This document shows, piece by piece, positions 18,549 through 53,776 of a stretch of 64,000 nucleotides of DNA. The DNA is taken from the NCBI GenBank assembly GCA_021780905.1, contig JAJXXW010000093.1, positions 1,559-65,558 on the forward strand. Reading direction: 5' to 3'. Within the stretch, counting starts at the first letter, position 1. Each line of letters begins with the position of its first letter. The DNA is from a bacterium (GTDB lineage: Bacteria > Verrucomicrobiota > Verrucomicrobiia > Limisphaerales > UBA11358). The notes below the pieces were generated by a model, which had not been told where the DNA came from, did no database searches, and saw only the letters and a list, made by a program, of their open reading frames with translations. Position numbers and translations under genes: made by a program.

Positions 18549-19682
18549 ATGAACGTCACGATCCGGGGTCGCGTGCGCCATCACCGCACCGTCACCTTTG
18601 ACGGCGCGCGCAACGCGGTCCAACTCATCGAACAGCGCCTGCTGCCCCACGAATTTCGGATCGTCGCCACGCGGGATTTCCGCGAAACCGCCGCCGCCAT
18701 CCACGACATGATTGTGCGTGGCGCGCCGGCCATCGCGGCCACCGCCGCTTACGGTCTGGCGCAGGGGGCGCGGGCCTTTCGGGAACGTGGTCTGCGCGCT
18801 TTCACCCGACACCTCGAGTCCGTTTACGAAACGCTCCAGGCTGTGCGGCCCACTGCCATCGACCCGGTCAACGCGATGGACCAGGTCCGGGCGCGGATGC
18901 AGGCGGGCGAGACGGTCGCGGAACGGCAGGCCCTGGCGTTGGCCGCGGCCGAGGATTTCGCCCAGCGCAGCGTCGAGGAATGTCGTCGGATCGGCAAGCA
19001 CAGCGCGCGGCTGATCCGGGACGGCGCCCGGGTGCTCACGCACTGCAACGCCGGCTGGCTGGCGTGCGTGGACATCGGCACCGCCACCGCGCCCATGTAT
19101 CAGGCGCAAGCGCAAGGGAGGCGTTTTCACGTATTCTGCGACGAAACGCGTCCCCGGTGCCAAGGAGCCAGCCTGACTGCCTGGGAATTGGCGCAGCAAG
19201 GGATTTCACACGAGGTCATCGCCGACAACGCCGCCGGGCACCTCATGCAACGGGGCGAAATTGACCTGGTGATCGTCGGCGCCGACCGCGTCCTGGGCCG
19301 TACCGGCGAAGTGGCGAACAAGATTGGCACCTATACCAAGGCGGTGCTCGCGCACCGGCATGGGATTCCTTTCTTTGTCGCCGTACCCCTGTCCACGCTC
19401 GACTGGCGGCTCAAATCGGGCGTTGACATTCCGATCGAGGAGCGGGATCAACGCGAAGTCCTCGGTGCGTGGGGCCTGGCACAGACGCCCAGTTCTGGGA
19501 TCCGAACTCCGAAAGGGGCGGAACGCGTGTATGTACGCGTGGCCAATCCGGGCAGCGGTGCGCGAAATCCGGCCTTCGACGTGACGCCCGGAGAATTGGT
19601 GAGAGGCATTATCACGCCGCGGGGAATTTTGGACCCCGCCGAACTCTGGCCGCGCCGGCGCGAGATGGTTCCGCGGGTCTGA
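18549..19682 (+). CDS. mtnA: S-methyl-5-thioribose-1-phosphate isomerase
   Basis: ..LIEQRLLPHE.., ..VRGAPAIAATAAYG.., ..GADRV...GEVANKIGTY.. eIF-2B/MtnA family signatures. ATG at 18549. Confidence 0.85.
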   Translation: MNVTIRGRVRHHRTVTFDGARNAVQLIEQRLLPHEFRIVATRDFRETAAAIHDMIVRGAPAIAATAAYGLAQGARAFRERGLRAFTRHLESVYETLQAVRPTAIDPVNAMDQVRARMQAGETVAERQALALAAAEDFAQRSVEECRRIGKHSARLIRDGARVLTHCNAGWLACVDIGTATAPMYQAQAQGRRFHVFCDETRPRCQGASLTAWELAQQGISHEVIADNAAGHLMQRGEIDLVIVGADRVLGRTGEVANKIGTYTKAVLAHRHGIPFFVAVPLSTLDWRLKSGVDIPIEERDQREVLGAWGLAQTPSSGIRTPKGAERVYVRVANPGSGARNPAFDVTPGELVRGIITPRGILDPAELWPRRREMVPRV

Positions 19683-19754
19683 ACCAGGGCCAGTTCGGGG
19701 CGGCGGTGAAACTTGCGCTTGGGAAGGGTGCTGACTATTCTCGTGCGGTTTGGC

Positions 19755-37625: not shown

Positions 37626-38782
37626 GAGACCTCTGAAAAACTCATTTGAACAGGATGTGATGAAGGGAGTCTGAGAGACATGCACACGACGACCAATCCC
37701 CAGCTTGGACTTTTGGACAGCTTCATGCCTTCGGCTCCGGCCAATGATTTTCTGGAAACGCTCGACACGGCACTGGACTGGAAGCCCATCGAGCAGACCT
37801 TGCAGGCCATGTATCCGGCGACGACGGGACGTCCGCCGTGTGCCCCGCTGGTGCTCTTCAAGATGAGTTTGTTGCAGCATTGCTACGGCCTGTCGGATCT
37901 ACAATGCGAGGAACTGGTGGGCGACCGTTTGAGCTGGCGGCGCTTTGTCGGTCTGGGATTGCAGGATGCCGTGCCAGATGAAACCACGCTGGTCAACTTC
38001 CGCAAGCGGCTGCGCCAATATGGGCAGCACGAAAACCTGCTGACCTTGATCAATCAACAGTTGCAAGCCAAGGGATTGATTTTGAAGACCTGCACGCTGG
38101 TGGATGCGACGCTGTTGCAGGCGGCGCGCCGCGCCCCGGCCAAGGAAGCTACGACCGGCGGGGATGATGATGCGGGCTACACGGTCAAACGGGGCCAGCC
38201 GCATTATGGCTACAAGGCGCATGTGGCGGTGGACGAAACCCACACGTTGATTCGCGCCGTCACGTTGACCAGTGCCAACGTGCATGACAGCCAGGAATTT
38301 GAAACGGTGGTCAAGGGCGACGAGGAAATGGTGATGGCCGACAAGGCGTATTGGAGCCGGGAACGCAGTGAATGGTGCGGCGAGCGTGGCATGGCCAACG
38401 GAATTTTGGAGAAGCCGGGCCGGGGCAAAGAACTGCGGCCGGCGGCGGTGCGGATGAACCGGCTGTTCAGTTCGATCCGCTGCAAGATTGAGAAAGTGTT
38501 TGGCTGGTGGAAACGGAGTGCGGGCTACCGCCGGGTGCGGTATGTGGGCCACGAACGCAACCGGCTGGAACTGGAGTTCAAATCCGTGTGTTGGAACCTG
38601 AAACGGCTGGCCACTTTGAGCGCGGCATGAACCACCATGCCGCCAGCGCCCGCCAGCGGGCGAAAACAACCGGCTGCGCGGGGCCAAAGCGCCTCGGTTT
38701 TCAGTTGGGCAGGCCATTTTCACGTTGAAAAATGTCGAGGACATCAAAACAAACAACTCAAACAGCCTTTTTCAGAGGTCTC
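37626..38782 (+). mobile_element. IS5-family insertion sequence (apparently intact)
   Basis: Perfect 15-bp terminal inverted repeats GAGACCTCTGAAAAA (37626-40) / TTTTTCAGAGGTCTC (38768-82), flanked by 5-bp direct repeat AAGCC (37621-25 / 38783-87). Single 316-aa DDE transposase ORF. Confidence 0.85.
37680..38630 (+). CDS. IS5-family DDE transposase
   Basis: InsH-like N-terminal domain (..GRPPCAPLVLFKMSLLQHCYGLSD..ELVGDRLSWRRF..) plus DDE core (..VDATLL.., ..GYKAHVAVD.., ..MADKAY...IEKVFGWWK..). Confidence 0.9.
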   Translation: MHTTTNPQLGLLDSFMPSAPANDFLETLDTALDWKPIEQTLQAMYPATTGRPPCAPLVLFKMSLLQHCYGLSDLQCEELVGDRLSWRRFVGLGLQDAVPDETTLVNFRKRLRQYGQHENLLTLINQQLQAKGLILKTCTLVDATLLQAARRAPAKEATTGGDDDAGYTVKRGQPHYGYKAHVAVDETHTLIRAVTLTSANVHDSQEFETVVKGDEEMVMADKAYWSRERSEWCGERGMANGILEKPGRGKELRPAAVRMNRLFSSIRCKIEKVFGWWKRSAGYRRVRYVGHERNRLELEFKSVCWNLKRLATLSAA

Positions 38783-41521: not shown

Positions 41522-41693
41522 AATTCGGGTAATAAATATAGTCGTCCTGCACGACAGCTACCCCCGGCTGCGCATAATATCCGGCGCGCGGCCCATCCAC
41601 ATAACCCACGCAGCCAGTCAGCGTGACCAAGAATGTAAAGCATAGCGCGAGCCCGACTTTGTTTGTTCCGAGAAAAATTTGTTTCTTGTTTAT

Positions 41694-41742
41694 AAGTTGA
41701 GAATAGTCCCGCCACGCATTGTCCGCTATGGGGTGTAACCCT
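41694..41742 (-). promoter_or_regulatory. motif site A: AGGGTTACACCCCATAG-N20-TATTCT-N6-ATA
   Basis: 17-nt block 41726-41742 is identical to 50127-50143. A -10-like TATTCT follows, and the ATA codon at 41693 lies 32 nt from the motif. Confidence 0.55.
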
Positions 41743-41754
41743 GCCGGCGGGTTC

Positions 41755-43212
41755 TTACTCCATTGCGGCCAGCAGTTCGTCCAGCGGCACGGTGGCGAAG
41801 CTGGTGGCGGAGTCACTCATCGCATAGGGAATGATGAGTTCGCGTCCATGCAGCAGCGCGCCGCAGGTATAAACCACGTTCGGCACATAGCCTTCGCGCT
41901 CGGCTTCGTTCGGACACAGAAACGGCTCGCGCAGGCGGCCAATGACGCGCGTGGGATCGTTCAAATCAAGCAGGATGGCACCGAGGCAATACTTGCGCAT
42001 CGCGCCGACGCCGTGAGTCAGCACTAGCCAGCCCGTCTCGGTTTCAAGCGGCGAACCGCAGTTGCCCAGCTTGATGAATTCCCACGGTTGCACGGGGGTG
42101 AGCAAGATTTTAGGCGTCTGCCAGAAATGGAGGTTGTCCGAAAACATCAGCAAAATGTTCTCGTCATCCTGGCGCGAGAGCATGGCGTAATGCCCGTTGA
42201 TTTTGCGCGGAAACAGCGCCATGCCCTTGTTCTGCACGGCGGGGCCGTTGAGCGTGCGAAATTTGAAATGCAGGAAGTCCGGCGTCTCCAGTAATTGCGG
42301 CAGGGTGATCTTGCCGTCGTAGGCCGTGTAGGTCGCGTAGTAAGCGAAACTGCCGCCCTCGTTCAAAAAGCGGACGAAGCGCGCATCTTCGATGCCGTTG
42401 CTCTGGCTGGGCGCGGACGGAAAAAGCACGCGCTGCGAAATTTTGCTCCCAGGCGCGAAGTGGACTTCGTAATTTGATTCCGCCAGCAGCAGGATGCCGC
42501 GCGCGGCGCGGGCCGCAGTGGCGTCGGAAGTGTCCGTCAGGCCGAACGCCACCAGAACCGCATGCAGTTCCTTGAGGGTGAAATCCTCATGCAGCTTGTC
42601 CAGCACGCGCCGGCAAAAATCATTTTGCACGCCGGCCTCCTCCAGTTTGTGGGCGAACAATCCCTTGACGTAGGCGACGTCGGGCACGCGCTCCGGCTCG
42701 GCCACAAACGGCACGGGCGGCGTGAGCGTGATGCGCTGATGGGCGCTGACGACGCCGACGCGGAAGGTGATGGAGGAAATGTGTCCCTCGCCCGTGGCGC
42801 GCAAACTCAAAATGAAACGCAGCGCGCCTTTGGGCAATCCGCTCTGATCGGGATGCGGCACGATGGACGGATTGAAGAGGGCCGCTGATTCCGGCGAATA
42901 CTCGTGCGTGAAGTAAGCGCCGATGAGCATCTGCCGTTCGGGCGAGAGCAACACGCCGGGTTCGAGATAAATCTTCACCTGCTCGAAACGGTTGCGAAAA
43001 GTAACGTCCACTTGCTCGTGCCGGTCCGTGAACTCGCCGAGCACACGGACGAGCAACCTGGCGACTTCCTGCTCCGGCAAGACCATGACCCGCGCGACGA
43101 TCCGCCGCGAGATGTCATCGGTGGTCGGACGAAACGGGCGCAGCAGCACGCGCGAACGATCTGGAATCAGCGTCGGCCCGATGCGTTTGGCGTGGAGGGT
43201 GGTGGTTTTCAA
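41755..43212 (-). CDS. GH130-family glycosidase/phosphorylase-like protein with long N-terminal extension
   Basis: ..GIEDARFVRF.., ..GYVPNVVYTCG.. beta-propeller GH130/DUF377-like signatures in the C-terminal 300 aa. Confidence 0.7.
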   Translation of the reverse strand: MKTTTLHAKRIGPTLIPDRSRVLLRPFRPTTDDISRRIVARVMVLPEQEVARLLVRVLGEFTDRHEQVDVTFRNRFEQVKIYLEPGVLLSPERQMLIGAYFTHEYSPESAALFNPSIVPHPDQSGLPKGALRFILSLRATGEGHISSITFRVGVVSAHQRITLTPPVPFVAEPERVPDVAYVKGLFAHKLEEAGVQNDFCRRVLDKLHEDFTLKELHAVLVAFGLTDTSDATAARAARGILLLAESNYEVHFAPGSKISQRVLFPSAPSQSNGIEDARFVRFLNEGGSFAYYATYTAYDGKITLPQLLETPDFLHFKFRTLNGPAVQNKGMALFPRKINGHYAMLSRQDDENILLMFSDNLHFWQTPKILLTPVQPWEFIKLGNCGSPLETETGWLVLTHGVGAMRKYCLGAILLDLNDPTRVIGRLREPFLCPNEAEREGYVPNVVYTCGALLHGRELIIPYAMSDSATSFATVPLDELLAAME

Positions 43213-43291
43213 TCAGGTAAAGTCTCGGTTACATGGGCGGGAAAGCGAGCATTGATTTCCGCTGCTTGATTCCCATGATGTTCGCGGCGGT

Positions 43292-45922
43292 TTATTTTCG
43301 CGGTTCGTTTTTCCGAATCTCCTGTTCCGCCTGCTCCCAATTCTGAACCGCATGACCGTCGTGGCGGCCTTGCTGCTCGTAGGCGCGCTTGGCGATCTCT
43401 GGTGTCACATCAACCGGTTTCCTGGCCCCAGCCTTGACCACGCGCCATTTGATCAGCACGACCTTCACCGCGTCGTTGACCAGCAGGCACGCGACCAGCG
43501 CATAGACGAAAATCACGAGCGTCTGCCCCCAAGGCAAGGGCAGGAGTCCCGGAAGACCCACCAACGTCAGCACGGTGCCCGCGAGCGCGCCCGCCAGGAG
43601 CGACGCCAGGAAGGACTTGCTCGGCAGTGTCGCCCAGAACCAGCGTCGCTCTCGCACCGACACGGCGGAAAAAACGCAAAAATAAAGCAGCGTCAGGAAG
43701 CTGAAGGTGCCGAGCGCATGGCTATCCGTCGCCAAACCGAAACGTGACCAGCCGATCCATAAGAAGAAAAGTGTTTCCGCGACCATCGCGACGCCGAGGA
43801 CCACGGAGACTAAGATGAAGCTCCCGATCACCCACGTCTCCGGTTTCCTGGAGGGTTGAACGCGGTCGGTGGCCAGGGCGATGGTCGCGAAGTCCAGCAC
43901 GAACACGAGCAGCAGCATCGCCAGGACGGAGACCACAAACTTGCCGGTCACCATGAACGCGATGGCGACGAACGCCGCCTTCAGGATCGTCCGGCTGATC
44001 TTGTTGATGATCCACGTCAGAATGCGCTGGTAAATCGTCCGCCCCTGCTCAACCAGCGCCACGATATTCGTCAATCCCGCTTCGGTCAGGACGACGCTTG
44101 CGGCACCCTTGGCCACGTCCGTCGCGGTGCTGACGGCGATGCCGACTTCGGCCTGGCGGAGCGCGGGCGCGTCGTTGACGCCATCGCCCGTCATGCCGGT
44201 GACATGCCCCGCAGCTTGCAGGTGTTTCACCACGGTGTATTTGTCTTCGGGAAATACTTCCGCGAAACCATCGGCACCCGCGAACAGGTCAACTGTTTGG
44301 TTGCCGGCCGCCGCGCTCGCCGCTTTCAACTCCGCCACGCGCTTGATGTTGGGCAATCCGACGCCGCTCCCGATCTCACACGCCACGGGCAGCGCGTCGC
44401 CGGTGAGCATCTTCACCGGCACGCCAAGATCGTGAAGCGTGGCGATAAGTTGCTTGGCGTCCGGCCGCGGCGGATCATACAACGACACCAATCCGACCAA
44501 AGTGAGAGCGCCTGTCTCAGGGCCGTGCGCCACCGCCAGTGTCCGATAGCCCTTTACCGCCGCCGCGCTGACCCGCGCCTCCAACGCCTCGATGGCCGGG
44601 GGCTGGAATCCGCAGGCTTCGGCGATGGTGCGCACGGCGCCTTTCATCACGCGCAGCCGCTGACCGCTCTGTTCCACCACGGCTTCCGTCCGCCGGTTTT
44701 TTGCCTCAAACGGTGCGAACGAAACCGGCGTGACCTTGGGCAGATTGTCGAAGACGTGCCGGTCTTTGGCTGCCGTGAGAAACGCGAGGTCTATCGGGTC
44801 TTGGTTGGCTTCCTGCGATGCGAGCGCGCCGGCGAACAGCACATCGGCTTCCGTCGCGTGCTCCAGCGGAATCACGCCGGTGACAGCGAGTTGGTTCATC
44901 GTGATCGTGCCCGTCTTGTCCACGCAGAGCACGTCCATCGTCGCGGCATCCTCCGCCGCGCTAAGACGAGTCACCAGCACGCCGCGCTTCGCCAGTTCTT
45001 TCGACCCGACAGCCATGCTGACTGTGAACATGACCGGGAGTGCGACCGGCACCGCGCTCATCAGCAGGACGAGCATGAGCGGAATCATTTCCATGAGCGG
45101 CGTGCCGCGAACCAGCGACAGCACGATCACCACGCCCAGCAGCGCGCCGACGATGACGAAGAGCCAGCGGACGACCTTGGTTACAACTGCTTCGATGTGA
45201 AGTTTTGGCCGCGCCTCCTGCACGAGTTGCGTCGTGCGGCCAAAATAGGTTTTCGCCCCGGTCAACATCACCACGCCGTTGCCTTCGCCCCGGCGGACGA
45301 CCGACCCGGACGAGAGCACTTCGCCCGGCTTCTTGTCGGCGTCCTTCGATTCGCCGGTGAGTGCCGATTGGTCAACACTCATCGCGCCGGTCAGAAGCTT
45401 CACGTCCGCCGGAATGATGTCGCCGGGGCGAACACGGACGATGTCGCCGGGAACCAGTTCGCGGGCGGGAATGACCTGCCAGCTTGAATCACGCAAGACG
45501 CGCGCATTGACCTGCAACCGTTTTCGCAGCGCCTCAACCACACCAGCGGCCCGGCTTTCCTGCATGAAACTCAACACCGCGTTGATCACCAGCAGCGCGC
45601 CCACGACGGCGAGGTCTGAATAATTTCCCAGCACGGCGGACAGCACCATGATCAGTTCGAGCATCCACGCGGAGATGCCCCAAAACTTCTTCAGGAATTT
45701 GAGGATCGGGTGGCCTTTGGTTTTGGCCACTTCGTTGAAGCCGTTTTCTTTCCGGCGGGTTTCCACCTCGGTCCGCGCCAGCCCGGTGTCGGGGTTGACT
45801 TTGAGCGACGCCAGCGTGTCGGGAACCGACGCCGAGGCAATGTCCGGCGGCTTGGTGCCGGCGGGCTGGGCGGGTGGCGGCTTGGTTTCGGGCTTATTTG
45901 GCGGCGTTGGCATAGTGGACAT
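43292..45922 (-). CDS. P-type ATPase, plasma-membrane H+-ATPase (P3A) type
   Basis: CVDKTGTITMNQL phosphorylation site and MTGDGVNDAPALRQAEVGIAV hinge; 10-TM-like layout. ATG 45922 preceded by GGAGAG. Confidence 0.9.
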   Translation of the reverse strand: MSTMPTPPNKPETKPPPAQPAGTKPPDIASASVPDTLASLKVNPDTGLARTEVETRRKENGFNEVAKTKGHPILKFLKKFWGISAWMLELIMVLSAVLGNYSDLAVVGALLVINAVLSFMQESRAAGVVEALRKRLQVNARVLRDSSWQVIPARELVPGDIVRVRPGDIIPADVKLLTGAMSVDQSALTGESKDADKKPGEVLSSGSVVRRGEGNGVVMLTGAKTYFGRTTQLVQEARPKLHIEAVVTKVVRWLFVIVGALLGVVIVLSLVRGTPLMEMIPLMLVLLMSAVPVALPVMFTVSMAVGSKELAKRGVLVTRLSAAEDAATMDVLCVDKTGTITMNQLAVTGVIPLEHATEADVLFAGALASQEANQDPIDLAFLTAAKDRHVFDNLPKVTPVSFAPFEAKNRRTEAVVEQSGQRLRVMKGAVRTIAEACGFQPPAIEALEARVSAAAVKGYRTLAVAHGPETGALTLVGLVSLYDPPRPDAKQLIATLHDLGVPVKMLTGDALPVACEIGSGVGLPNIKRVAELKAASAAAGNQTVDLFAGADGFAEVFPEDKYTVVKHLQAAGHVTGMTGDGVNDAPALRQAEVGIAVSTATDVAKGAASVVLTEAGLTNIVALVEQGRTIYQRILTWIINKISRTILKAAFVAIAFMVTGKFVVSVLAMLLLVFVLDFATIALATDRVQPSRKPETWVIGSFILVSVVLGVAMVAETLFFLWIGWSRFGLATDSHALGTFSFLTLLYFCVFSAVSVRERRWFWATLPSKSFLASLLAGALAGTVLTLVGLPGLLPLPWGQTLVIFVYALVACLLVNDAVKVVLIKWRVVKAGARKPVDVTPEIAKRAYEQQGRHDGHAVQNWEQAEQEIRKNEPRK

Positions 45923-45948
45923 TCTCTCCGTGGCTGCTCGGTTGACCG

Positions 45949-48231
45949 CTATTTCCCATTGGGATCCTTGAAGCTGGTGAGCGTGTTTTGCAGCGCCCGC
46001 ATTTCCGCGAGCGACAGCAGAAAGGCCAGCGTGGATTCCGCACCTTGATTCTGGCTCAACCGGTCCATGTGCAAACCGTCGCGACAACCGCCGGTGCCCG
46101 CGTCGTAGAGCGCCAAGCCCAGATCGTTGCGGCCAAGAAACCACTCGAACGCTCGGCGCGCTTCCGCGACCCAGACCATGTCGCCCGTGGCATGATACGC
46201 TTCAATGCAGGCCGAAACCGTGGCTTGCGCCTCGATGGGTTGCTGGTCGAAGACCGCGCGTTCCTGGCCGCGCAGAAAAAATCCATTGGAACCGACAGGC
46301 CGGAATGAGCCGGCATCCGAGGTTTGAATTTTGGTCAGCCAGCGCAACGCTTTGATCCCGGTGTCCAGCAGCGGCGCGGCATTCAGACAGCGCCCGCTTA
46401 AAATCAGCGCGTGTGGCAGCTTGGCGTTCGCATACGAAACCACTTCTTCAAACCAGTGCCAGTCGTCGCGTGCAGTGTCGCCGTAGCTCTGCATCAGCCG
46501 CGTCGTAAGCGTTTCGCGAATGTGGTTCGCGCGTCGGTCGCCGCTGAACCGTCGCAGATATTCGTCAATGCCGATGAGCGTGAAGGCCCACGCGCGCGGC
46601 GACGAAAATTCGGCGGCCACCGGCAGCGCCTGCTCGAAGAGTTGCGCCGCGAGCATTTGAAAACTTCCCTGACCGGCCTGCGACACGCACAAGCCCAGCG
46701 CCCACAACGCATGGCCCTGGCAATCCTCCGAGCCGACTTCCTCCAGCCAACGCCGTTCGAAGCTCATGAAATTGCGGAAGCGTCCGCGCTGGCGGTCGAA
46801 GGCGTGGTTGAGAAACGCCGCATAAGTCGCAGCCCGCGTGCCAAGACACGGCGAACCATGCCCCAGCTTTTGCAGCAACAACGCCAACACCAGGGCGCGG
46901 GCGTTGTCGTCCGTGCAATAGCCTTCGGCAAAGTTCGGCACGGTGAAGCTCGCGTGTTGGAAAATCCCGGTTGAGTCGCTCATGCGAAACAGGTGATCCA
47001 GTTTTAGTTCTGGCAATTGCCCGGGCGATTCGTCGAGCGTTTTAATAGGCGAAGATTTTCTGCCGACGAAACTGTGGTCGTGCCGCGCCTGTTCGAAAGA
47101 TTTTGCGTAGAGCTGGGCCACGCGGCTCCAGATCATGTCACGGCCAATCTTGTAGGCGTTCTTGCGCATCAAATGACGCAACGGTTCGTCGCGCAGCAGC
47201 TCGACGACCGCGACCGCGATGGCCTTGGCGTCGCGGAACGGCACGAGTTTGCCGCGCTCCGCTGCGAGCATTTCCGTCGCGTGCCAGTAAGGCGTGGATA
47301 CGACGGCATTGCCGTTGCCGAACGCATACGCCAGCGTGCCCGAAGTAATTTGCGTTTCGGTCAAATACGGCGTCAGGTAAATATCCGCCGCGCCGATGAA
47401 GCGCATCAGTTCTTCCAGTTCGACGAAGCGGTTGAAGAACACCACGTTTTTTTGCACGCCGAGGTCTTTCGCCAACCGCTCCAAACTCAAGCGGTAAGCC
47501 TCGCCTTCGTGGCGCAGCAGATTCGGATGCGTCTGCCCGACCACGATATAGACGATGTTGGGAAATTCGCGGATGATTTCCGGCAGCGCCCGCAGCGCAT
47601 ATTCGATGCCCTTGTTCGGCGACAACAAACCGAACGTGAGCAGCACCTGTTTGCCCGCCACGCCGAATTCGTCCTTGAAATAATTTGGGTCGGCGAACGG
47701 CATATCGGGAATGCCGTGCGGAATGAGGTCAATTTTATTTTCCGGAGCGTGATAAACTTCGCGCAGAAATTCCTTGCCGCGCTCGCTCATCACAATCAGG
47801 CGCGTCGAAAGCCGGATCAATTCGCGCATCACGCGGCGCTGTTCGTCGTTTGGTTCGCGCAGGACCGTGTGCAGCGTAGTGACGATGGGCATTTGCAATT
47901 CGCGCAGCAGCGCCAGCACATGGCTGCCCGCCGGCCCGCCGAAAATGCCAAACTCATGTTCCACGCACACCACGTCCACATCCGTGATGTTCAGAAAATC
48001 CGCCGCGCGCAAATATGAAGTCAGGTCTTGCTCGGCGATTTCAAAACGCACTTCTGCCGGGTAATTGTAGCCCTCTGCGAGATCATTGACCGGCACAACG
48101 AGACATTGCAGTTGTGGAAATTCCTTTGCCACGGCGCAACGCAAGTCGGTGGTGAACGTGGCAATGCCACATTTTCTCGGCAGATAGTCGCCGAGAAAGG
48201 CGACCTTGCGAATGGGAGCGGCGAACTGCAT
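45949..48231 (-). CDS. GT4-family glycosyltransferase with large C-terminal domain
   Basis: N-terminal 400 aa resemble glycosyl transferase group 1 (..FGLLSPNKGIEYAL.., ..SERGKEF..). A further 350-aa C-terminal domain of unknown function follows. Confidence 0.75.
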   Translation of the reverse strand: MQFAAPIRKVAFLGDYLPRKCGIATFTTDLRCAVAKEFPQLQCLVVPVNDLAEGYNYPAEVRFEIAEQDLTSYLRAADFLNITDVDVVCVEHEFGIFGGPAGSHVLALLRELQMPIVTTLHTVLREPNDEQRRVMRELIRLSTRLIVMSERGKEFLREVYHAPENKIDLIPHGIPDMPFADPNYFKDEFGVAGKQVLLTFGLLSPNKGIEYALRALPEIIREFPNIVYIVVGQTHPNLLRHEGEAYRLSLERLAKDLGVQKNVVFFNRFVELEELMRFIGAADIYLTPYLTETQITSGTLAYAFGNGNAVVSTPYWHATEMLAAERGKLVPFRDAKAIAVAVVELLRDEPLRHLMRKNAYKIGRDMIWSRVAQLYAKSFEQARHDHSFVGRKSSPIKTLDESPGQLPELKLDHLFRMSDSTGIFQHASFTVPNFAEGYCTDDNARALVLALLLQKLGHGSPCLGTRAATYAAFLNHAFDRQRGRFRNFMSFERRWLEEVGSEDCQGHALWALGLCVSQAGQGSFQMLAAQLFEQALPVAAEFSSPRAWAFTLIGIDEYLRRFSGDRRANHIRETLTTRLMQSYGDTARDDWHWFEEVVSYANAKLPHALILSGRCLNAAPLLDTGIKALRWLTKIQTSDAGSFRPVGSNGFFLRGQERAVFDQQPIEAQATVSACIEAYHATGDMVWVAEARRAFEWFLGRNDLGLALYDAGTGGCRDGLHMDRLSQNQGAESTLAFLLSLAEMRALQNTLTSFKDPNGK

Positions 48232-48234
48232 GGA

Positions 48235-48462
48235 TCATTTCTGGACCGGCGGAGTGTGGTCATTACCACTGGCCGACACAATCGCGGCGGCTTTCAACAA
48301 GCCCTTGGATTTCTGCTGCCAGACTTTGGCTTCCGCCTCATTCTTTTCCTTCTCGGAGGATTCGCCGGTCAAAGATTCTTCAATGATGTCTTTCGCGACA
48401 GTCGCGCAGACTTTTGCCTTTTGCTGCATCGCTTCGGAAAGCTTGGTGGGTTCGGGGTTCAT
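48235..48462 (-). CDS. small hydrophilic protein
   Basis: 75 aa from ATG 48462, which overlaps the upstream stop (ATGA). Ends 3 nt before the GT start. Confidence 0.4.
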   Translation of the reverse strand: MNPEPTKLSEAMQQKAKVCATVAKDIIEESLTGESSEKEKNEAEAKVWQQKSKGLLKAAAIVSASGNDHTPPVQK

Positions 48463-48755
48463 GTCTGGTGGCTTGGTTTGGGCGGCGAACGGAATTCCGA
48501 CCAGAGCGAGCCGGCGAGCTGCACGCCTTTGAGGATGGATTCCAGCCACGATGTTATTTTAACGGCGGGCTGTCGTAGCTTCACCAGTTCGGAAACCAGC
48601 ACTACGGACGCGGACGCCAGGAAACGGAGGGTGGCCGTCTGCTGCGCCAGCTCGTTCGCTTCGCCCGCCAGCGTCTGCCAGTCTTGAGCCAGTTGGGCGC
48701 GGTTGAGTTCGCTTTCCGCAATCAACAGTTGTTTGCGCGAGGCGAGCGGGTTCAT
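48459..48755 (-). CDS. YqjK-like small protein
   Basis: MNPLASRKQLLIAESELNRAQL.. then a hydrophobic segment. Occupies the third position after the DUF883 and DUF1469-like genes, as in E. coli yqjD-yqjE-yqjK. ATGA overlaps on both sides. Confidence 0.45.
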   Translation of the reverse strand: MNPLASRKQLLIAESELNRAQLAQDWQTLAGEANELAQQTATLRFLASASVVLVSELVKLRQPAVKITSWLESILKGVQLAGSLWSEFRSPPKPSHQT

Positions 48756-49138
48756 GCGAGAAAATTTCCCAGGCAAGCGCGGTCTTTGCGCAGTTGATCC
48801 AGCGAGGCGGAAAGCGTCTGCCAGTTACGGAGCAAACCCGTCAGCCGCTGATAAAGAAAAATTCCGGCGGCGGCGTAGATGCCGGTCAAAATCAGCAGCA
48901 CAGCCACGGGCGAATATGCCTAAAGTAAAACCGCGATGGCGGTTGTGAGCGCGATGCCGGCGAGCAGGCCGAACGCAGCCACGCCGAGCGCCAGCAGGAA
49001 CGCGTGCAGGATTCGCTCGCGCTCCTCCTGCACCCTCACCGCCAGCAATTCCAGCCGGTTTTCGCCGATGGTCGCCAGTCGCCGCACGAATTTTTTCGAG
49101 GTTGTGGCCAACTGCCGCAAGCTGGTGGAGTTTTCCAT
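48752..49138 (-). pseudogene. YqjE / Holin-X (DUF1469)-like membrane protein with an in-frame TAG
   Basis: 72 codons (..ENRLELLAVRVQEERERILHAFLLALGVAAFGLLAGIALTTAIAVLL), then TAG at 48920-22, then 55 in-frame codons (AYSPVAVLLILTGIYAAAGIFLYQRL..). The second stretch supplies the expected second TM helix, and its TGA overlaps the next ATG. Confidence 0.6.
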
Positions 49139-49145
49139 GGTTTTA

Positions 49146-49454
49146 TCAATCGCAATTGCGCGAGGAACAGCGGCGACCAAGGAGATAACCGATGACCGCA
49201 CCAACGCCCACGCCGATGGCGATGGCCTGATACGGATTTGCGCGAACGGTTTCGTCGGCGACCTTTGCGCCAGCAATGGCCTGGTCGCGGACGCAACCGG
49301 CAACCTCCTTGGCGCTGTCCAGCGCGGCGGCAAGACGCTTGCGCGCGGCACCGACTTTTTCCCCGGCCACATCGGCGGTGGCGGACAATAATTCGCGCGC
49401 GTCCGCCGCGAGGGTGCCGAGGTCATTACCGGCGCCTTTGATTTCTTGGTTCAT
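49146..49454 (-). CDS. DUF883 (ElaB/YqjD-like) stress-associated membrane-anchored protein
   Basis: ..LLSATADVAGEKVGAARKRLAAALDSAKE.. and C-terminal ..NPYQAIAIGVGVGAVIGYLLGRR. ATG 49454 overlaps the upstream stop. Confidence 0.8.
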   Translation of the reverse strand: MNQEIKGAGNDLGTLAADARELLSATADVAGEKVGAARKRLAAALDSAKEVAGCVRDQAIAGAKVADETVRANPYQAIAIGVGVGAVIGYLLGRRCSSRNCD

Positions 49455-49831
49455 AATTTTTCTGTTTTTGTTTTGTTGGTGTTTTTCAACGGTAAATTTT
49501 CCGCTTTGGCGAGGTGTTTTGCTTCCGGCGAATCCGCCACCGTCAAAATGGAATTTCTTCCGCCGAACGGATTCGGCACGGACTCGCGTGCGCGCGGATC
49601 GGGTATCCACTTGCCGTCCACGATGAAGCAATACTCGTAAGTGCCGGTGGCGAGATTGGTTTTCTTCCACCAGTTGCTGGTGCCGGAGGAATGCAGCGTC
49701 TTGGCTTCAGGTTTCCAATTATTGAAACTGCCCGCCACACAAACGGTGATGGCGGTGGGATGTTTGAACTCAAAACGAACCGGCACGAGTTGCGGGCTGG
49801 TGACGTTGTCATGATTGTGATTATGTTTCAT
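49451..49831 (-). CDS. CBM48 / AMPK-beta glycogen-binding-domain protein
   Basis: ..VRFEFKHPTAITVCVAGSFNNWKP...TGTYEYCFIVDGKWIPDP.. Confidence 0.75.
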   Translation of the reverse strand: MKHNHNHDNVTSPQLVPVRFEFKHPTAITVCVAGSFNNWKPEAKTLHSSGTSNWWKKTNLATGTYEYCFIVDGKWIPDPRARESVPNPFGGRNSILTVADSPEAKHLAKAENLPLKNTNKTKTEKL

Positions 49832-49858
49832 ATTTTTAATTTATTTGATTGCGACGGG

Positions 49859-50056
49859 TCACCGGACTTGCGGCACATGGATGTCGCCCGCATGGCCGAT
49901 GATGCCAAACACAGATAGCAGCCACACGACGACGCAGATGACGACAACGATGTTGAGGATTTTTTTGATCTTCCCGTCCATCGGGATGTAGGTGTTGACC
50001 AGCCACAAGAGCACACCGATGACAATCAGGGTGACGACGAGAGAAATTAGTGACAT
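49859..50056 (-). CDS. Thivi_2564-like small membrane protein
   Basis: 65 aa with two hydrophobic helices: MSLISLVVTLIVIGVLLWLVNTYIPMDGKIKKILNIVVVICVVVWLLSVFGI.. Confidence 0.6.
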   Translation of the reverse strand: MSLISLVVTLIVIGVLLWLVNTYIPMDGKIKKILNIVVVICVVVWLLSVFGIIGHAGDIHVPQVR

Positions 50057-50094
50057 AGGTTGCCTTGGTTTGGAGTGGATGAATTATTTTTCAT
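50047..50094 (-). CDS. candidate 15-codon leader ORF (MKNNSSTPNQGNLCH*)
   Basis: Its ATG lies 32 nt from motif site B, the same spacing as the other three sites. Its stop lies 5 nt past the ATG of the 49859-50056 gene, in another frame. Confidence 0.3.
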   Translation of the reverse strand: MKNNSSTPNQGNLCH

Positions 50095-50143
50095 GTCGTG
50101 AGATTAGGCGGAAGCGACGGCACGGACTATGGGGTGTAACCCT
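50095..50143 (-). promoter_or_regulatory. motif site B: AGGGTTACACCCCATAG-N20-TAATCT-N6-ATG
   Basis: 17-nt block 50127-50143 is identical to 41726-41742. Overlaps the stop codon of the receiver gene. Confidence 0.55.
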
Positions 50144-50657
50144 ACCGCGCAGAATCACCACCGAGCCACGTCTGCAAAGGCAAGCGATTCCAGTTTGGCG
50201 GCGGCGTGGACTCCTGACGGTCGTGGGCGTCCATGTGCAAGACGTGCTTCACCGTTTCCAGCAATTCATCGAACGAATAAGGCTTGAGCAGGACAGCCTT
50301 GATTTCCAGCCACGGATGCCGGGCCAACTGATCCTCCTGCAAGGTTCCCGTGGCCATGATGACCGGCAGCTTCATGCTGGAATCGTGAAGCCTCTTCAGC
50401 AGTTCAATGCCGGACACCTTCGGCATATCATGGTCGGTGATCAACAAATCGTAGTTGTCTAGTTGCAACGCGTCCCAGGCGGCCGCCCCGTCTTCAGCGG
50501 CGTCCACATGATAGCCGGAGGAAATCAGCACTTCAGTGTTCAGACGGCGAATGTCCGGGTCATCCTCCGCCACGAGAATGCGCTGGCATGGATTTGCTTC
50601 AAGCAAAGGTAATGCGCTGGAAAATTCTCCGGCCCGCGAAAGTTGGTTGTTCTTCAC
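50142..50657 (-). CDS. single-domain response regulator (CheY-like receiver)
   Basis: ..ILVAEDDPDIRRL...DLLITDHDMPKVSG..LPVIMATG..; GTG start. Confidence 0.8.
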   Translation of the reverse strand: MKNNQLSRAGEFSSALPLLEANPCQRILVAEDDPDIRRLNTEVLISSGYHVDAAEDGAAAWDALQLDNYDLLITDHDMPKVSGIELLKRLHDSSMKLPVIMATGTLQEDQLARHPWLEIKAVLLKPYSFDELLETVKHVLHMDAHDRQESTPPPNWNRLPLQTWLGGDSAR

Positions 50658-50711
50658 GGTGCAACTATAAGCCGCAATCCCAGGCGGCAGCTATGGGGTG
50701 TTTTCCCCATG
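50658..50711 (-). promoter_or_regulatory. motif site C: CATGGGGAAAACACCCCATAG-N21-TATAGT-N6-GTG
   Basis: 50691-50711 is a half-palindromic copy. The GTG start of the receiver gene lies 33 nt from the motif. Confidence 0.55.
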
Positions 50712-50783
50712 CCCGATTTGATGAATCCGGCCCAGAATTGATTGCAAAATGGAAACGGGAATGAGGACGAAACCTGACGCGGA

Positions 50784-51081: not shown

Positions 51082-51783
51082 CTAGACAATCGTCAACTGC
51101 ACGCTGCTTTCGATGATGCCCGCGCTGATGGCGTAGCGCGTGAGTCCGGCGGTGTCGTGGATGTCCAGCTTCTGCATCAGATGCTCGCGGTGTTTCTCAA
51201 CCGTCTTGATGCCGATGCCAAGGGCGTCCGCCGTTTCCTTGTTGGCCTTGCCTTCGGCGATAAGTTGCAGAACTTCCATTTCGCGCGAAGTCAGTTGGGC
51301 AATTTTCGAGTTCAGCTTGCCCGTTTTGCTGGGCAACTGCGGATTGAGACGGTTAAAATGTCTGGCAATCGAAGGGCTGAAAAAAGTTTTCCCCGCGTGA
51401 ACTTCCCGGATCGCCCGGCAAACGTCCTGCGCGGAAGTTTGCTTCAGCAGAAAGCCCACCGCGCCGGACTCGGTGGTGTTTTGCACATACGCGTCATCAC
51501 TGTGAGCGGAGAGCATGAGCACCTTGGTGCCGGGGATGGTTTTAAGAATCTGCCGCGTCGCTTCCAGGCCATTGAGCTGGGGCATGGCAATGTCCATCAG
51601 CACCACGGCGGGCCGGAGTTTTTTGGCGAGCGCCACCGCCTGACGTCCGTCCTGCGCTTCGCCCACCACTTCAAAATCGGCTTCCAGTTCCAGCATGTTG
51701 CGAAACCCCTCGCGCACGATCATGTGGTCTTCGGCCAGCAGCACGGTGATTTCTTTCATAGGCATTTCAATGGCTGATTTCAT
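51082..51783 (-). CDS. NarL/FixJ-family response regulator (receiver + LuxR HTH)
   Basis: ..VLLAEDHMIVREG...VVLMDIAMPQLNG.. receiver, and ..LTSREMEVLQLIAEGKANKETADALGIGIKTVEKHR.. LuxR-type HTH. Confidence 0.9.
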   Translation of the reverse strand: MKSAIEMPMKEITVLLAEDHMIVREGFRNMLELEADFEVVGEAQDGRQAVALAKKLRPAVVLMDIAMPQLNGLEATRQILKTIPGTKVLMLSAHSDDAYVQNTTESGAVGFLLKQTSAQDVCRAIREVHAGKTFFSPSIARHFNRLNPQLPSKTGKLNSKIAQLTSREMEVLQLIAEGKANKETADALGIGIKTVEKHREHLMQKLDIHDTAGLTRYAISAGIIESSVQLTIV

Positions 51784-52928
51784 TGGGTTTTTCTACCCCC
51801 CCCCCCCGGTTTTCCGAACGGAATTTGCGCCGTGATGGTGGTGCCTTGGCCGGGCGCGGATTCGACGCCAAATTTGCCGCCGACCATTTCCATGCGTTCC
51901 CTCATGCCGAGCAGGCCGAGACGCTTGCCGCCATTCGCGTGCAACGTGCGTTCCACCTGAAACGATTTGCCGTCGTCCTTGATTTTCATGCAGACGCCAT
52001 CGGGCAGTTTCTGGATGCTTACTTCCACGCGGCTGGCTTGCGCGTGGCGGGCGACATTGGTGAGCGCTTCCTGGGCGACACGAAACATCACCGTGCGCCG
52101 GGCCGTATCCAATTCTTCGATGCCGGCAAACGCTTTCAAATGCGTGCGGACGCCGGTGCGCGTGGTGAAATTTTTCATGAACGAATGCAGCGCGGGAATC
52201 AGGCCGAGATCGTCCAGCACGGCCGGGCGCAGTTCGCGCGCGAACCGATGCACGATGTCCACCGATTTTTCCACCAGCCGTTGCGTGCGCGCGATGTTGC
52301 GGTCAAGACCCTTGGTGTTGATCGCGGCTTCCTTGGACAGCGCCGCGAGCCGGACGTTGATGCCGGTCAATGTCTGGGCAATAACATCGTGCAGTTCGCG
52401 GCTGATTTCCCGGCGCTCTTCTTCCTGCGCGGTGAGAATCTGCCGCGATAACTGCCGCAACTGTTCCTGCAACCGGTCCGATTGCTCCAGCAGTTCGGAA
52501 TAATGACGCTCGCTCTTTTTGAGCGCCGCCTCCGCCGCCTTGCGGTGGCTGATTTCCTGATTCAATTCCAGATTCGACGCGGCCAGTTCCACCGTGCGTC
52601 GGCTCAACGTCTCGATGATTTTTCGCAGATAGACAGCGGCATCCTGGGTGCTGGTGTGTGTCTTCTCCAGCGGAAGAATCGCCTCGGCAAAAAAACTTCC
52701 CGCCTGCTTGATGAGCGCGGCGCGTTTGCCGGCCGGGACGCCGGGCAACAACTCGGTAACGAGCGTCTGCTCATGGAGCTTGGCCAGGTCCAGCGTTTGC
52801 AGTCCGGCGGCGTGAGCCAGACCGCCGACGCTGCGCGCTGAAGCCAAGCCCGCCTGCTTGCCCTGCTTTATTTGGATGCGCAACGCGTCCTGATAGCGGC
52901 GCGACGAATTGAAATGTTTGCGTTTCAT
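51780..52928 (-). CDS. cytoplasmic sensor histidine kinase (HisKA_3 + HATPase_c)
   Basis: H-box ..EEERREISRELHDVIAQTL.. and ATPase N/G boxes (..EALTNVARHA.., ..DDGKSF.., ..GLLGMRERMEMVGG..). No TM segments. Stop overlaps the RR start (ATGA). Confidence 0.85.
   Translation of the reverse strand: MKRKHFNSSRRYQDALRIQIKQGKQAGLASARSVGGLAHAAGLQTLDLAKLHEQTLVTELLPGVPAGKRAALIKQAGSFFAEAILPLEKTHTSTQDAAVYLRKIIETLSRRTVELAASNLELNQEISHRKAAEAALKKSERHYSELLEQSDRLQEQLRQLSRQILTAQEEERREISRELHDVIAQTLTGINVRLAALSKEAAINTKGLDRNIARTQRLVEKSVDIVHRFARELRPAVLDDLGLIPALHSFMKNFTTRTGVRTHLKAFAGIEELDTARRTVMFRVAQEALTNVARHAQASRVEVSIQKLPDGVCMKIKDDGKSFQVERTLHANGGKRLGLLGMRERMEMVGGKFGVESAPGQGTTITAQIPFGKPGGGGRKTQ
51796..51807. repeat. 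12-nt homopolymeric C/G tract
   Basis: 12 consecutive C on the + strand. Encodes PGGGG in the last 9 codons of the kinase. Lies 13-24 nt upstream of the RR ATG. Confidence 0.95.
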
Positions 52929-53623
52929 GCTTTTCGAAATTCGCGGGCGGCCCGCCGCACGGAGCTGGCCGACTTGGCCACCAGCCGTTGCGTGCTGGCA
53001 ATTTCCAGCTTAAGCCCCTTTGTGTTGATCCGCGACTCCTGTTTCAAGGAGAGCAGCCGAACATTGATGCCCAGCAGGGTTTGGGCGACTTCATCCTGAA
53101 GTTCCAGGCTGATCTTTTTCCGTTCCTCCTCCTGGGCCGCCAGCACTTGATGCGTCAGTTGCCGCAAACCTTCTTGCAGGTGCAGGGAATCTTTTAACAG
53201 CTTGGTGTAATGCACCCCGCTTTTCTTGAGCGCGGCCTCCACGCGCTTGCGCCGGAGGACGCCGCGCTTCAACTGCCGGTTGGTGACGGCCAGTTCCAGC
53301 GTGCGCCGGCCGAGCGTTTCCTTCAACCGGTGCAAATCGGTTTTGTTCTGTCGCGCGGCACGATGCGTCTCCACAATCGGCGTGAGCGCTTCGGTGAAAA
53401 AAATTTCCGCCCGCTGGATAAAGCCGTTTTTACTGGTGGTTAATTCAAGTGTATTCAGCGCCCGTTCGTGAATCCGCGCCAGTTCCAATGTCTCCACGCC
53501 GAGGGCGACCGCCTGGCGTCCCAGTTCCAGTGCCGGCTGTAAACTCGCACGTGCGCCTGGTTTAAGGTGCGTCCGCAATGCCGTCGCATAACGTTGCGAC
53601 AGCTGAATTAGTTTTTGCTTCAT
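52925..53623 (-). CDS. truncated histidine-kinase paralogue (sensor + DHp only, H-box His replaced by Gln)
   Basis: Collinear with the first ~230 aa of the 51780-52928 kinase. The H-box reads ..EEERKKISLELQDEVAQTL.. Ends ..RRAAREFRKA* just after DHp helix 2, with no HATPase_c domain. Stop overlaps the kinase start (ATGA). Confidence 0.7.
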   Translation of the reverse strand: MKQKLIQLSQRYATALRTHLKPGARASLQPALELGRQAVALGVETLELARIHERALNTLELTTSKNGFIQRAEIFFTEALTPIVETHRAARQNKTDLHRLKETLGRRTLELAVTNRQLKRGVLRRKRVEAALKKSGVHYTKLLKDSLHLQEGLRQLTHQVLAAQEEERKKISLELQDEVAQTLLGINVRLLSLKQESRINTKGLKLEIASTQRLVAKSASSVRRAAREFRKA

Positions 53624-53721
53624 ATTGGCATCCTGATGGCGGCGGGAATGGGCGAAAAGCTTTAACTTTCGCGGGCGGGCCGCCAATGCAAAACAAACAT
53701 CAGATAATTTTCCCGATTTGG

Positions 53722-53776
53722 CTATGGGGTGAACACCCCATAGTTCCAGTCCGCATTTCAGGCGATGCTATGAGCT
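53722..53776 (+). promoter_or_regulatory. motif site D: perfect palindrome CTATGGGGTG-AA-CACCCCATAG-N22-TGCTAT-N5-ATG
   Basis: 53722-53743, in the divergent spacer between the kinase operon and the lipoprotein gene. The ATG at 53777 lies 33 nt from the motif. Confidence 0.55.

Follow-up and report, generated by a model that had tools for sequence, protein, structure and literature searches.

Ten consecutive open reading frames (ORFs) on the minus strand of a 64,000-nucleotide (nt) stretch of verrucomicrobial DNA (contig JAJXXW010000093.1; the whole stretch is called the window below) raise the question of whether a row joining small stress-type proteins, sugar enzymes and a proton pump is one interdependent programme or a collection of parts with separate histories. 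The row runs from 50094 to 41755 and its members are listed in Table 1. The original prediction had described ten co-oriented, tightly packed genes; all of them were found in place, and a coordinate check gave the same spacing at every junction. The upstream ORF (uORF) overlaps the Thivi_2564 gene, 27 nt separate the latter from CBM48, CBM48 and DUF883 share an ATGA overlap, and 7 nt lie between DUF883 and the DUF1469-like gene. Further ATGA overlaps join the DUF1469-like gene to the gene for a 98-amino-acid (aa) protein and that gene to a 75-aa ORF, which ends 3 nt before the GT4 gene. The spacers on the two sides of the ATPase gene are 26 nt (from GT4) and 79 nt (to GH130). The GH130 start is TTG at 43212, which gives a protein of 485 aa in agreement with relatives (484–489 aa) and with the database gene call P0241. 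Families were assigned by Pfam and NCBIfam hidden Markov model (HMM) searches, scores being compared with the family cutoffs; the names proposed earlier stood for eight of the ten ORFs, but not for the 'YqjK-like' protein or for the 75-aa ORF, which has no family.

The account that we favour, with moderate confidence, is that the row is one compact, probably co-transcribed unit which was joined in this lineage from separately conserved units of a single stress regulon. It would run from a 22-bp motif at 50126–50148 to the GH130 stop codon at 41755. Its parts would be the uORF with the Thivi_2564 membrane protein; a cassette of CBM48, DUF883 (YqjD-type), DUF1469 (YqjE-type) and a small protein; a widely conserved enzyme pair, GT4-(alpha/alpha)6 and GH130; and the P3A ATPase, a single gene apparently put into the GT4-GH130 spacer only in this acid-mine-drainage population.

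In all, 167 related loci were compared (cited below by our numbers, L001 and so on). Eighty of them lie around GT4 homologues 65–91% identical to that of the window, in which the positions of the ten proteins were sought; 79 of these were evaluable for the GT4-GH130 link and 67 for the link of the cassette to GT4. A second set comprised 80 metagenome loci around ATPase homologues 76–87% identical. GH130 follows GT4 on the same strand at a distance of less than 150 nt in 66 of the 79 evaluable loci, and the bins of these loci bear the labels Verrucomicrobiota, Acidobacteriota, Spirochaetia, Phycisphaerae and Hydrogenedentes. This order, GT4-(alpha/alpha)6 and then GH130, is the sole broadly conserved link in the row. 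In seven more loci unrelated inserts of 0.9–7.3 kb, among them methylase-like and ParA-like genes, stand between the two genes. In 9 of 67 loci the cassette immediately precedes GT4, all nine being from close Verrucomicrobiota with a GT4 at least 78% identical; it is found elsewhere or inverted within 10 kb of GT4 in 6, and is absent from 52. L019 and L010 have the order motif, uORF, Thivi_2564, CBM48, DUF883, DUF1469, small protein, GT4 and GH130, which is that of the window without the 75-aa ORF and the ATPase. The cassette is likewise linked to GT4 and GH130 in L005 and L008, and L001 has the same order with a 7.3-kb insert and even the same next unit after GH130 (motif and lipoprotein). 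The expectation that the linkage would be conserved in relatives was thus borne out in part: the cassette-GT4-GH130 order recurs in several other species-level genomes, but the ten genes form no conserved unit. In other phyla the recurrent neighbours of GT4 and GH130 are PAS kinases, NarL regulators, BON, RRM, KaiC, GroEL and a second GT4, a set that fits a stress role for the pair.

Two further observations concern the pair. DNA has entered the short GT4-GH130 spacer repeatedly in relatives (Table 1). In 14 distant, mostly Acidobacteriota-labelled loci (L054–L080 type; for example L069, 13712–14842) a second GT4 of 376 aa follows GH130 to give a three-enzyme module.

The ATPase gene was found between or beside GT4 and GH130 in none of the 79 GT4 loci, and none of the 80 ATPase-homologue loci carries GT4, GH130 or the cassette, so that the suggested co-occurrence of DUF883 and DUF1469 with a P3A ATPase and GH130 failed in both directions. 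The protein scores 695.7 bits against TIGR01647 (trusted cutoff 615.5), the next-best subfamilies being PMR1-type (329.6 against 798.3) and Mg-type (286.9 against 610.75). The motifs DKTGT, TGES and GDGVNDAPAL are readable in the sequence, and proton transport is predicted. Among the matches listed there are at least 120 relatives 81–100% identical, from soil, peat and other metagenomes, many of them named proton-efflux P-type ATPase by their sources; the pump is therefore not exotic for a bacterium, as had been implied by calling it a eukaryote/archaea-type protein. Four inspected loci around ATPase homologues hold a phosphoketolase together with a varying PPK2, acetate kinase, aldolase, aquaporin or extra ATP synthase, and the commonest of the neighbours tested for are PPK2 (17/80) and XFP phosphoketolase (10/80).

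In L002 and L014, 13 nt separate the GT4 stop from the GH130 start, TTGAAAACCACC, which is also the start in the window. The insertion of the ATPase was thus gene-sized and went into a very short spacer with the tight spacing kept. An assembly chimera, formed from a conserved gene shared among community members, would also place an ATPase here, and two observations are of the kind that it would produce: contig depth rises five- to ten-fold at 44073–44369 inside the ATPase gene, and an independent 4.4-kb contig of GCA_027452585.1 (L083/L084) ends just past the ATPase. The depth spike, however, coincides with the universal GDGVNDAPAL hinge region, near-identical words of which occur in other community members. 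The 4.4-kb contig reaches from GT4 through the ATPase to nucleotide 24 of GH130 and is 99.9% identical there, and metagenome contigs from three to four separate runs span each ATPase junction without mismatch. Given the junction-spanning contigs and the independent assembly, the arrangement is no assembly artefact, and a chimera was rejected as having a practically negligible probability. The sequence occurs in four runs, each of them labelled mine drainage metagenome, and the ATPase is a gene-sized insertion specific to this mine-drainage lineage. Recruitment of the pump in such an organism suggests selection for pH homeostasis, and the insertion would have placed proton extrusion under the same stress signal as the rest of the row.

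The ATPase of the window ends in a C-terminal DUF2934 (43292–43400, minus strand). Around ATPase homologues this domain is also found on an ATP-synthase b subunit (L085, 20528–21574) and as a free 90-aa protein (L087, 9546–9818), and it may be a shared regulatory or targeting tag.

The other evidence for joined units comes from the motif upstream of the row, site B. Its palindrome is ggTAGGGTtACACCCCATAG, the ideal form being CTATGGGGTG-TT-CACCCCATAG, a 22-bp inverted repeat, and a perfect palindrome, CTATGGGGTGTTCACCCCATAG, lies at 53722–53743. The window contains five exact matches to CACCCCATAG at four sites, the 53.7-kb palindrome being counted on both strands. A weight-matrix scan of all 64 kb returned only four motif sites, all at unit boundaries and none inside the row: before the row, after GH130, before a receiver-only regulator, and in the divergent region before the RsbU_N/HisKA_3-kinase-NarL genes. 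The related loci hold 32 exact CACCCCATAG half-sites in 1.38 Mb against 2.6 expected, a count that overstates independence as the instances are partly orthologous. In these relatives the motif stands before Thivi_2564 (L001, L007, L017, L019), which follows its own copy there, before CBM48 (L007, L008, L016), before DUF883 (L009), before GT4 (L012, L025) and before small lipoproteins. Since the motif precedes single modules in the relatives, what is a fusion of modules in the window exists elsewhere as separate units under similar control.

The motif is also placed at a characteristic distance from genes. An ATG or GTG occurs 31–33 nt past it in 22 of 39 instances, about 3.6 being expected by chance (our own estimate from start-codon frequency), and a TAnnnT-like element stands a few bases upstream of these start codons. 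The spacing holds for the GTG at 50657 (receiver gene), the ATG at 53777 (lipoprotein) and the uORF at 50094. This suggests leaderless messages across the regulon, in which case transcription would begin at the start codon or beside it and the 22-bp repeat would overlap the -35 position of the promoter. The uORF, which has the same position and 15 codons in L001, L007, L017 and L019, is predicted to begin at the transcription start. Starts at this spacing recurrently have A-rich second to fourth codons (MKNK, MNKK).

Table 1. Positions of the row, its motif copies and candidate regulators in the window, and of inserts and leaders in related loci
Feature	Position	Strand	Evidence or remark
Candidate regulator locus: CTATGGGGTGTTCACCCCATAG, RsbU_N+HisKA_3 ORF, HisKA_3+HATPase_c kinase, NarL/LuxR-type regulator	51082..53744	-	
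Receiver-only response regulator, 171 aa, GTG 50657, own motif 50690-50712	50142..50712	-	PF00072; GTG 33 nt past motif
Operator/promoter-like motif, site B, GCGGTAGGGTTACACCCCATAGT	50126..50148	-	imperfect 22-bp palindrome, 32 nt upstream of uORF ATG
15-codon uORF (MKNNSSTPNQGNLCH)	50047..50094	-	10-nt overlap with Thivi_2564 start codon
Thivi_2564-family small membrane protein, 65 aa	49859..50056	-	NCBIfam NF041949
Free-standing CBM48 (AMPK-beta type glycogen-binding module), 126 aa, predicted cytoplasmic	49451..49831	-	PF16561
DUF883 / YqjD-ElaB-type C-tail-anchored protein, 102 aa	49146..49454	-	PF05957 + PF19029
DUF1469 / YqjE-like protein with two transmembrane segments, in-frame TAG 48920-48922	48752..49138	-	PF07332
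98-aa protein in yqjK position	48459..48755	-	13 aligned orthologues, no Pfam match
Orphan 75-aa Lys/Glu/Ala-rich ORF, coding status uncertain	48235..48462	-	no family
GT4 with C-terminal (alpha/alpha)6-type domain, 760 aa	45949..48231	-	Pfam/NCBIfam, PDB profile match
P3A-type H+-efflux P-type ATPase, 876 aa (873 aa from ATG 45913)	43292..45922	-	TIGR01647
GH130 enzyme, 485 aa	41755..43212	-	PF04041
Second motif copy, heading next unit (small lipoprotein)	41725..41747	-	7 nt past GH130 stop
Inserts at GT4-GH130 spacer in relatives	L001 12281-19623; L015 2513-5680; L021 12281-15349; L051 12281-14722; L053 12281-13565		
Conserved cassette leader in relatives	L007 ~5504-5603; L008 4000-4100; L009 ~17752-17867; L016 ~19594-19694		

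A regulator for the motif is suggested by the genes beside the perfect palindrome. A HisKA_3 kinase and a NarL-type regulator adjoin a palindrome that recurs before several units, which is the architecture of a NarL-type two-component regulon, and the NarL-type regulator most likely reads the 22-bp motif. The adjacent kinase would sense a signal and the regulator would then activate the motif-bearing promoters, one of which would drive the whole row. The regulator, at 51783–51082, is a generic member of the NarL family. Its closest solved relatives are VraR (7e-42), NarL, DesR and DevR (3e-26); a true DosR orthologue was rejected on the ground that the protein is nearer VraR than DevR. Upstream in the same locus, the RsbU_N+HisKA_3 ORF (253 aa) lacks an ATPase domain and shares an ATGA overlap with the 382-aa HisKA_3+HATPase_c kinase (51780–53686, minus strand); the two are either two proteins or one split sensor kinase.

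The first units of the row are made up of small proteins. The Thivi_2564 protein scores 78.6 bits against NF041949 (cutoff 33). CBM48 is the first gene of the cassette, and its product scores 50.6 against PF16561 (AMPK1_CBM; cutoff 26.8) and is borderline against PF02922 (22.2 against 22.4). Among solved structures the nearest are the CBMs of AMPK beta and SEX4, and the alignment with the former keeps the GSFNNW...VDGxW...N positions; with the family match and the sugar-binding positions in place, glycan binding is predicted. The DUF883 protein (PF05957, 38.6 against 25.4; PF19029, 48.6 against 27) is 31% identical to Escherichia coli YqjD (BLASTP, E=5e-14). The DUF1469-like gene reaches 40.8 bits against PF07332 (cutoff 28.4) when its in-frame TAG is read as Trp, and gives a weak but co-linear alignment with E. 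coli YqjE that includes the same Trp. The 98-aa protein has an N-terminal charged helix and a hydrophobic segment and is conserved in the cassette, 13 orthologues being alignable. It has no Pfam match at E<=10, and a profile of the 13 sequences compared with E. coli YqjK (PF13997) gave an hhalign probability of 0.14%; the agreement with YqjK is in gene position and size alone. The yqjD-yqjE-yqjK core that had been claimed is accordingly real for yqjD and yqjE, to which DUF883 and DUF1469 are homologous, but is not supported for the third protein.

The in-frame TAG, unnoticed in the original prediction, means that the DUF1469-like gene is not intact. Twelve of 12 relatives carry a Trp here, as does E. 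coli YqjE. An identical 615-bp contig with the TAG (48733–49347) is present in four separate mine-drainage metagenome runs, and the TAG is therefore no assembly slip. It leaves an N-terminal product of 72 aa, and a GTG at 48907, 12 nt downstream, could restart the 51-aa C-terminal half. The sequence past the TAG is still almost identical to that of relatives, so that either the TAG is recent or the second half is re-initiated at this GTG. Stop-codon recoding was rejected: TAG closes the GT4 gene at the point where its homologues end, which makes it an ordinary stop in this genome. The supposed translational coupling through DUF1469 into the next gene by the ATGA overlap is broken by the stop. 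The 75-aa ORF has no Pfam match at E<=10 and no tblastn match in the 167 loci, relatives having spacers of 22–52 nt in its place, and it is thus an orphan unique to this genome among the loci compared. Metagenome contigs show nine strain-level substitutions in ~190 nt over it; in its frame, four of the strain-level single-nucleotide polymorphisms (SNPs) are synonymous and three non-synonymous.

Two side observations belong here. Where the cassette has its own motif, a conserved leader of ~65–70 nt (gggaaatggaa...ctcttccaaaatcaagag...) extends from the promoter to the start codon, and the window is without it (Table 1); it could be a structured 5' untranslated region. The lipoprotein gene after GH130 has ATA at 41691–41693 (minus strand), 32 nt past the motif, where the L001 orthologue has ATG; it may be a second inactivated regulon member, and this ATA and the TAG of the DUF1469-like gene are both G-to-A changes on the coding strand.

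Within the row, terminator-like and sigma-70-like sites show no excess over shuffles in a consensus scan, which also found no terminator-like site in the 79-nt ATPase-GH130 spacer, and an Rfam search of 41.0–54.5 kb gave no RNA family. The genes might nevertheless be neighbours without shared function or transcript, brought together by genome compaction and chance insertion, with internal promoters serving GT4, ATPase and GH130. The GT4-GH130 spacer did take up unrelated inserts in relatives (methylase-like, ParA-like, a 7.3-kb block), the ATPase is normally found in other contexts, and metatranscriptomes gave no sign of a single transcript. Yet promoters or terminators would not fit into the ATGA overlaps or into spacers of 3 nt and 26 nt, and the longest spacer has no terminator-like site. 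The modules of relatives each stand behind the same motif, which implies common regulation, and the inserts of relatives are larger and partly on the opposite strand, whereas the ATPase is co-oriented and tightly fitted. Chance neighbourhood is for these reasons thought to be unlikely.

The reading given in the original prediction, that all ten genes form a co-evolved, interdependent and translationally coupled dormancy or osmotic-stress programme in which the silencing of ribosomes and membrane, the binding of glycans, the making and phosphorolysis of glycosides and the pumping of protons depend on one another, draws on the same tight junctions, three of them ATGA overlaps, on the single upstream motif with none inside the row, on the cassette-GT4-GH130 order common to L010, L019, L005 and L008, and on a stress-type neighbourhood (DUF3309 and a PRC barrel around the row in the window; BON, KaiC and RRM in relatives). 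Against this, the ATPase link is missing from every other locus compared, the cassette link is limited to close relatives and is often broken or inverted, the modules in relatives have their own promoter motifs, the 75-aa ORF is an orphan and the DUF1469 gene carries a stop codon. The TAG, the ATA start and the orphan ORF with its SNP cluster point to a regulon copy in flux and not to a finely tuned ten-gene machine. Such a programme is held to have a low probability. What survives of the proposal is a credible link to a stress regulon, a cassette-GT4-GH130 order that recurs in the clade and one motif before a compact block; the ten-gene unit itself is a local mosaic whose ATPase link is unique to the lineage. 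An insertion-sequence-type DDE transposase gene is present at 37680–38630 (plus strand), 3 kb past the stress genes that follow GH130.

What the enzyme pair does has to be read from its domains. The GT4 domains span residues ~69–361 of the GT4 protein, with scores of 41 for PF13439 (Glyco_transf_4), 61.8 for PF00534 (Glycos_transf_1) and 62.7 for PF13692, both GT-B halves being above cutoffs, and the closest solved relatives of this half are PimA-type (GT-B) GDP-mannose transferases. The ~370 C-terminal residues belong to a separate family of ~5000 cluster representatives at 50% identity, which is mostly fused to GT4, sometimes free, and rarely combined with a GFO/IDH/MocA oxidoreductase or an alpha/beta hydrolase. 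This domain has no Pfam match at E<=10, and its profile matches only PDB 7tem, an uncharacterised Yersinia protein (E=2e-8). The structure model is all-helical and of low confidence (predicted local distance difference test score, pLDDT, 55.6), and a Foldseek search with it returned 7tem first, followed by (alpha/alpha)6 barrels of GH76, GH127 and sugar epimerases, at a template-modelling score of ~0.4. The homologues used for this model and for that of the GH130 N-terminus were 80–92% identical only. Structure prediction, as had been proposed for both regions, thus gave a consistent (alpha/alpha)6 class for the former and nothing meaningful for the latter.

GH130 scores 100.6 bits against PF04041 (cutoff 26), and its PDB matches are 9fj8 (E=6e-32), then 7fip and 9eqq. 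Its core can be aligned with three beta-1,2-mannoside phosphorylases, Teth514_1788, Teth514_1789 and Uhgb_MS (E 6e-32 to 3e-27). With residue roles in these enzymes taken from PMC12814180, the IEDAR motif is aligned with the catalytic Glu-Asp, as is the NK position with its counterpart; of the beta-1,2 determinant pair, the Lys is conserved and the Glu aligned as well; and the phosphate-binding Arg and His are kept, plus the Lys of Teth514_1789. The catalytic core thus resembles that of beta-1,2-mannoside phosphorylases. The ~250 N-terminal residues lie outside the Pfam match; the model shows a helical domain and an insertion, and the first 255 residues have no Pfam match at E<=10, a model pLDDT of 57.7 and no meaningful match in a fold search. 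From these alignments we infer that the GT4/GH130 pair makes, and phosphorolyses or re-mobilises, a cytoplasmic mannose-containing oligosaccharide or solute.

The pair could instead serve the synthesis of envelope polysaccharide or cell-wall glycan. Homologues are annotated 'glycosyltransferase involved in cell wall biosynthesis' by their sources, the GT4 protein has weak NCBIfam matches to exopolysaccharide (EPS) and lipopolysaccharide (LPS) transferases, and a second GT4 after GH130 is seen in 14 distant loci. However, the Pfam domains of the ten ORFs include no transporter, flippase, polymerase or lipid carrier, and no such families stood out among the recurrent annotated neighbours in related loci. 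GH130 has the phosphate-binding and beta-1,2 signature of cytoplasmic phosphorylases. No signal-peptide-like N-terminus was seen by eye in the translations of GT4, GH130 and CBM48, as in the characterised phosphorylases, which are without signal peptides (PMC7660257), and the best solved GT4 relatives are PimA-type soluble or peripheral enzymes. An envelope role is for these reasons regarded as very unlikely, and a cytoplasmic storage or solute cycle is preferred.

Several points weigh against the account of a co-transcribed unit of regulon parts and its proposed functions. Three metatranscriptomes of the same study gave nothing on the region attributable to this genome, the only match being a 45-nt fragment of one contig in the conserved ATPase core. 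The position of the ATPase could be neutral, since unrelated DNA also entered the GT4-GH130 spacer in relatives. The pairing of regulator and motif is inferred from adjacency and from a placement like that of autoregulation. The motif instances are partly orthologous, so that their counts overstate independence. To judge from the TAG in the DUF1469-like gene and the ATA lipoprotein start, parts of the regulon may be decaying here, and it is then harder to see the whole row as a tuned programme. The (alpha/alpha)6 assignment of the GT4 C-terminal domain is weak but consistent, both structure models being of low confidence (pLDDT 56 and 58). Finally, GH130 falls far under the NCBIfam equivalog cutoffs (141.5 against 550 and 138.4 against 450; EC 2.4.1.339/340), so that its substrate is not fixed by sequence.

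A wider proposal can be put forward, as a speculation of low probability. In many soil and peat bacteria of several phyla, an uncharacterised, stress-regulated pair of GT4-(alpha/alpha)6 and long-form GH130 might make and recycle a beta-1,2-mannoside in the cytoplasm, as a 'mannogen-like' reserve or a compatible solute. A NarL-type regulator acting on leaderless promoters might, in a single verrucomicrobial clade, connect this cycle with a cassette that joins glycogen binding to YqjD-type ribosome silencing, and the acid-mine-drainage lineage would then have added a proton pump to the same transcript.

The row itself is of moderate interest; the parts worth experiments are the GT4-(alpha/alpha)6/GH130 pair, the CBM48-YqjD/E cassette and the putative leaderless NarL-type regulon. 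The pair is uncharacterised and is present in hundreds of genomes, far more widely than the window. The cassette ties a glycogen-binding module to a family known to silence ribosomes: E. coli YqjD-family proteins bind the 50S subunit and silence ribosomes at the membrane, and syntenic blocks with DUF883 in the Planctomycetes-Verrucomicrobia-Chlamydiae (PVC) group have already been noted (bioRxiv 10.1101/2024.08.16.608256, PMC11302039). Neither a cluster of GT4, GH130 and a P-type ATPase nor a link between CBM48 and DUF883 turned up in our literature search, in keeping with the earlier statement that no published linkage of such genes was known. The case shows how a stress regulon may be rearranged in nature, modules that stand behind the same operator in relatives being fused here into one putative operon; the addition of a proton-efflux pump to that operon in a mine-drainage population would be a concrete example of adaptation by operon accretion.

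Each part can be compared with a known system. Like the P3A H+-ATPases of plants (AHA2), fungi (Pma1) and archaea or bacteria, the ATPase of the window exceeds the TIGR01647 cutoff and has the DKTGT/TGES/GDGVNDAPAL motifs; it differs in its C-terminal DUF2934 and in the place of its gene inside a putative bacterial operon. The putative regulon shares with DosS/DosT-DosR (DevR) of Mycobacterium and with VraSR/LiaSR a HisKA_3 kinase with a NarL/LuxR regulator and a palindromic operator of ~20 bp with a GGG...CCC core, and, as in the DosR and NarL-family regulons, the operator stands before many small stress-protein units and before the regulator's own genes. It differs from DosR in that the regulator is nearer VraR, the sensor has an RsbU_N domain, the motif sequence is another one and the promoters are apparently leaderless, and the likeness to the DosR regulon is one of architecture only.

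The cassette resembles E. coli yqjD-yqjE-yqjK and Pseudomonas aeruginosa PA3040-3042 in its DUF883 protein, which has a Gly-zipper C-tail anchor and 31% identity with YqjD, in the PF07332 protein with two transmembrane segments followed by a third protein of ~100 aa, tightly coupled, and in its stress-regulated context. It differs from both in being led by a free CBM48, in its fusion to sugar enzymes and in another regulator type. The YqjE-like gene is interrupted, and the third protein is without detectable YqjK similarity; PA3042 of Pseudomonas, too, has no recognised domain (bioRxiv 10.1101/2024.08.16.608256, PMC11302039). The GH130 core, finally, aligns with characterised phosphorylases (Teth514_1788/1789, Lin0857, Uhgb_MS) at E ~1e-30, keeps their key residues and looks cytoplasmic. 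It differs from them in ~250 extra N-terminal residues, in scores well below the equivalog cutoffs and in being paired with a GT4-(alpha/alpha)6 fusion instead of uptake or catabolic genes. As in the mannogen cycle of Leishmania (GT108), a cycle of reserve-sugar synthesis and phosphorolysis is plausible for the pair in the window.

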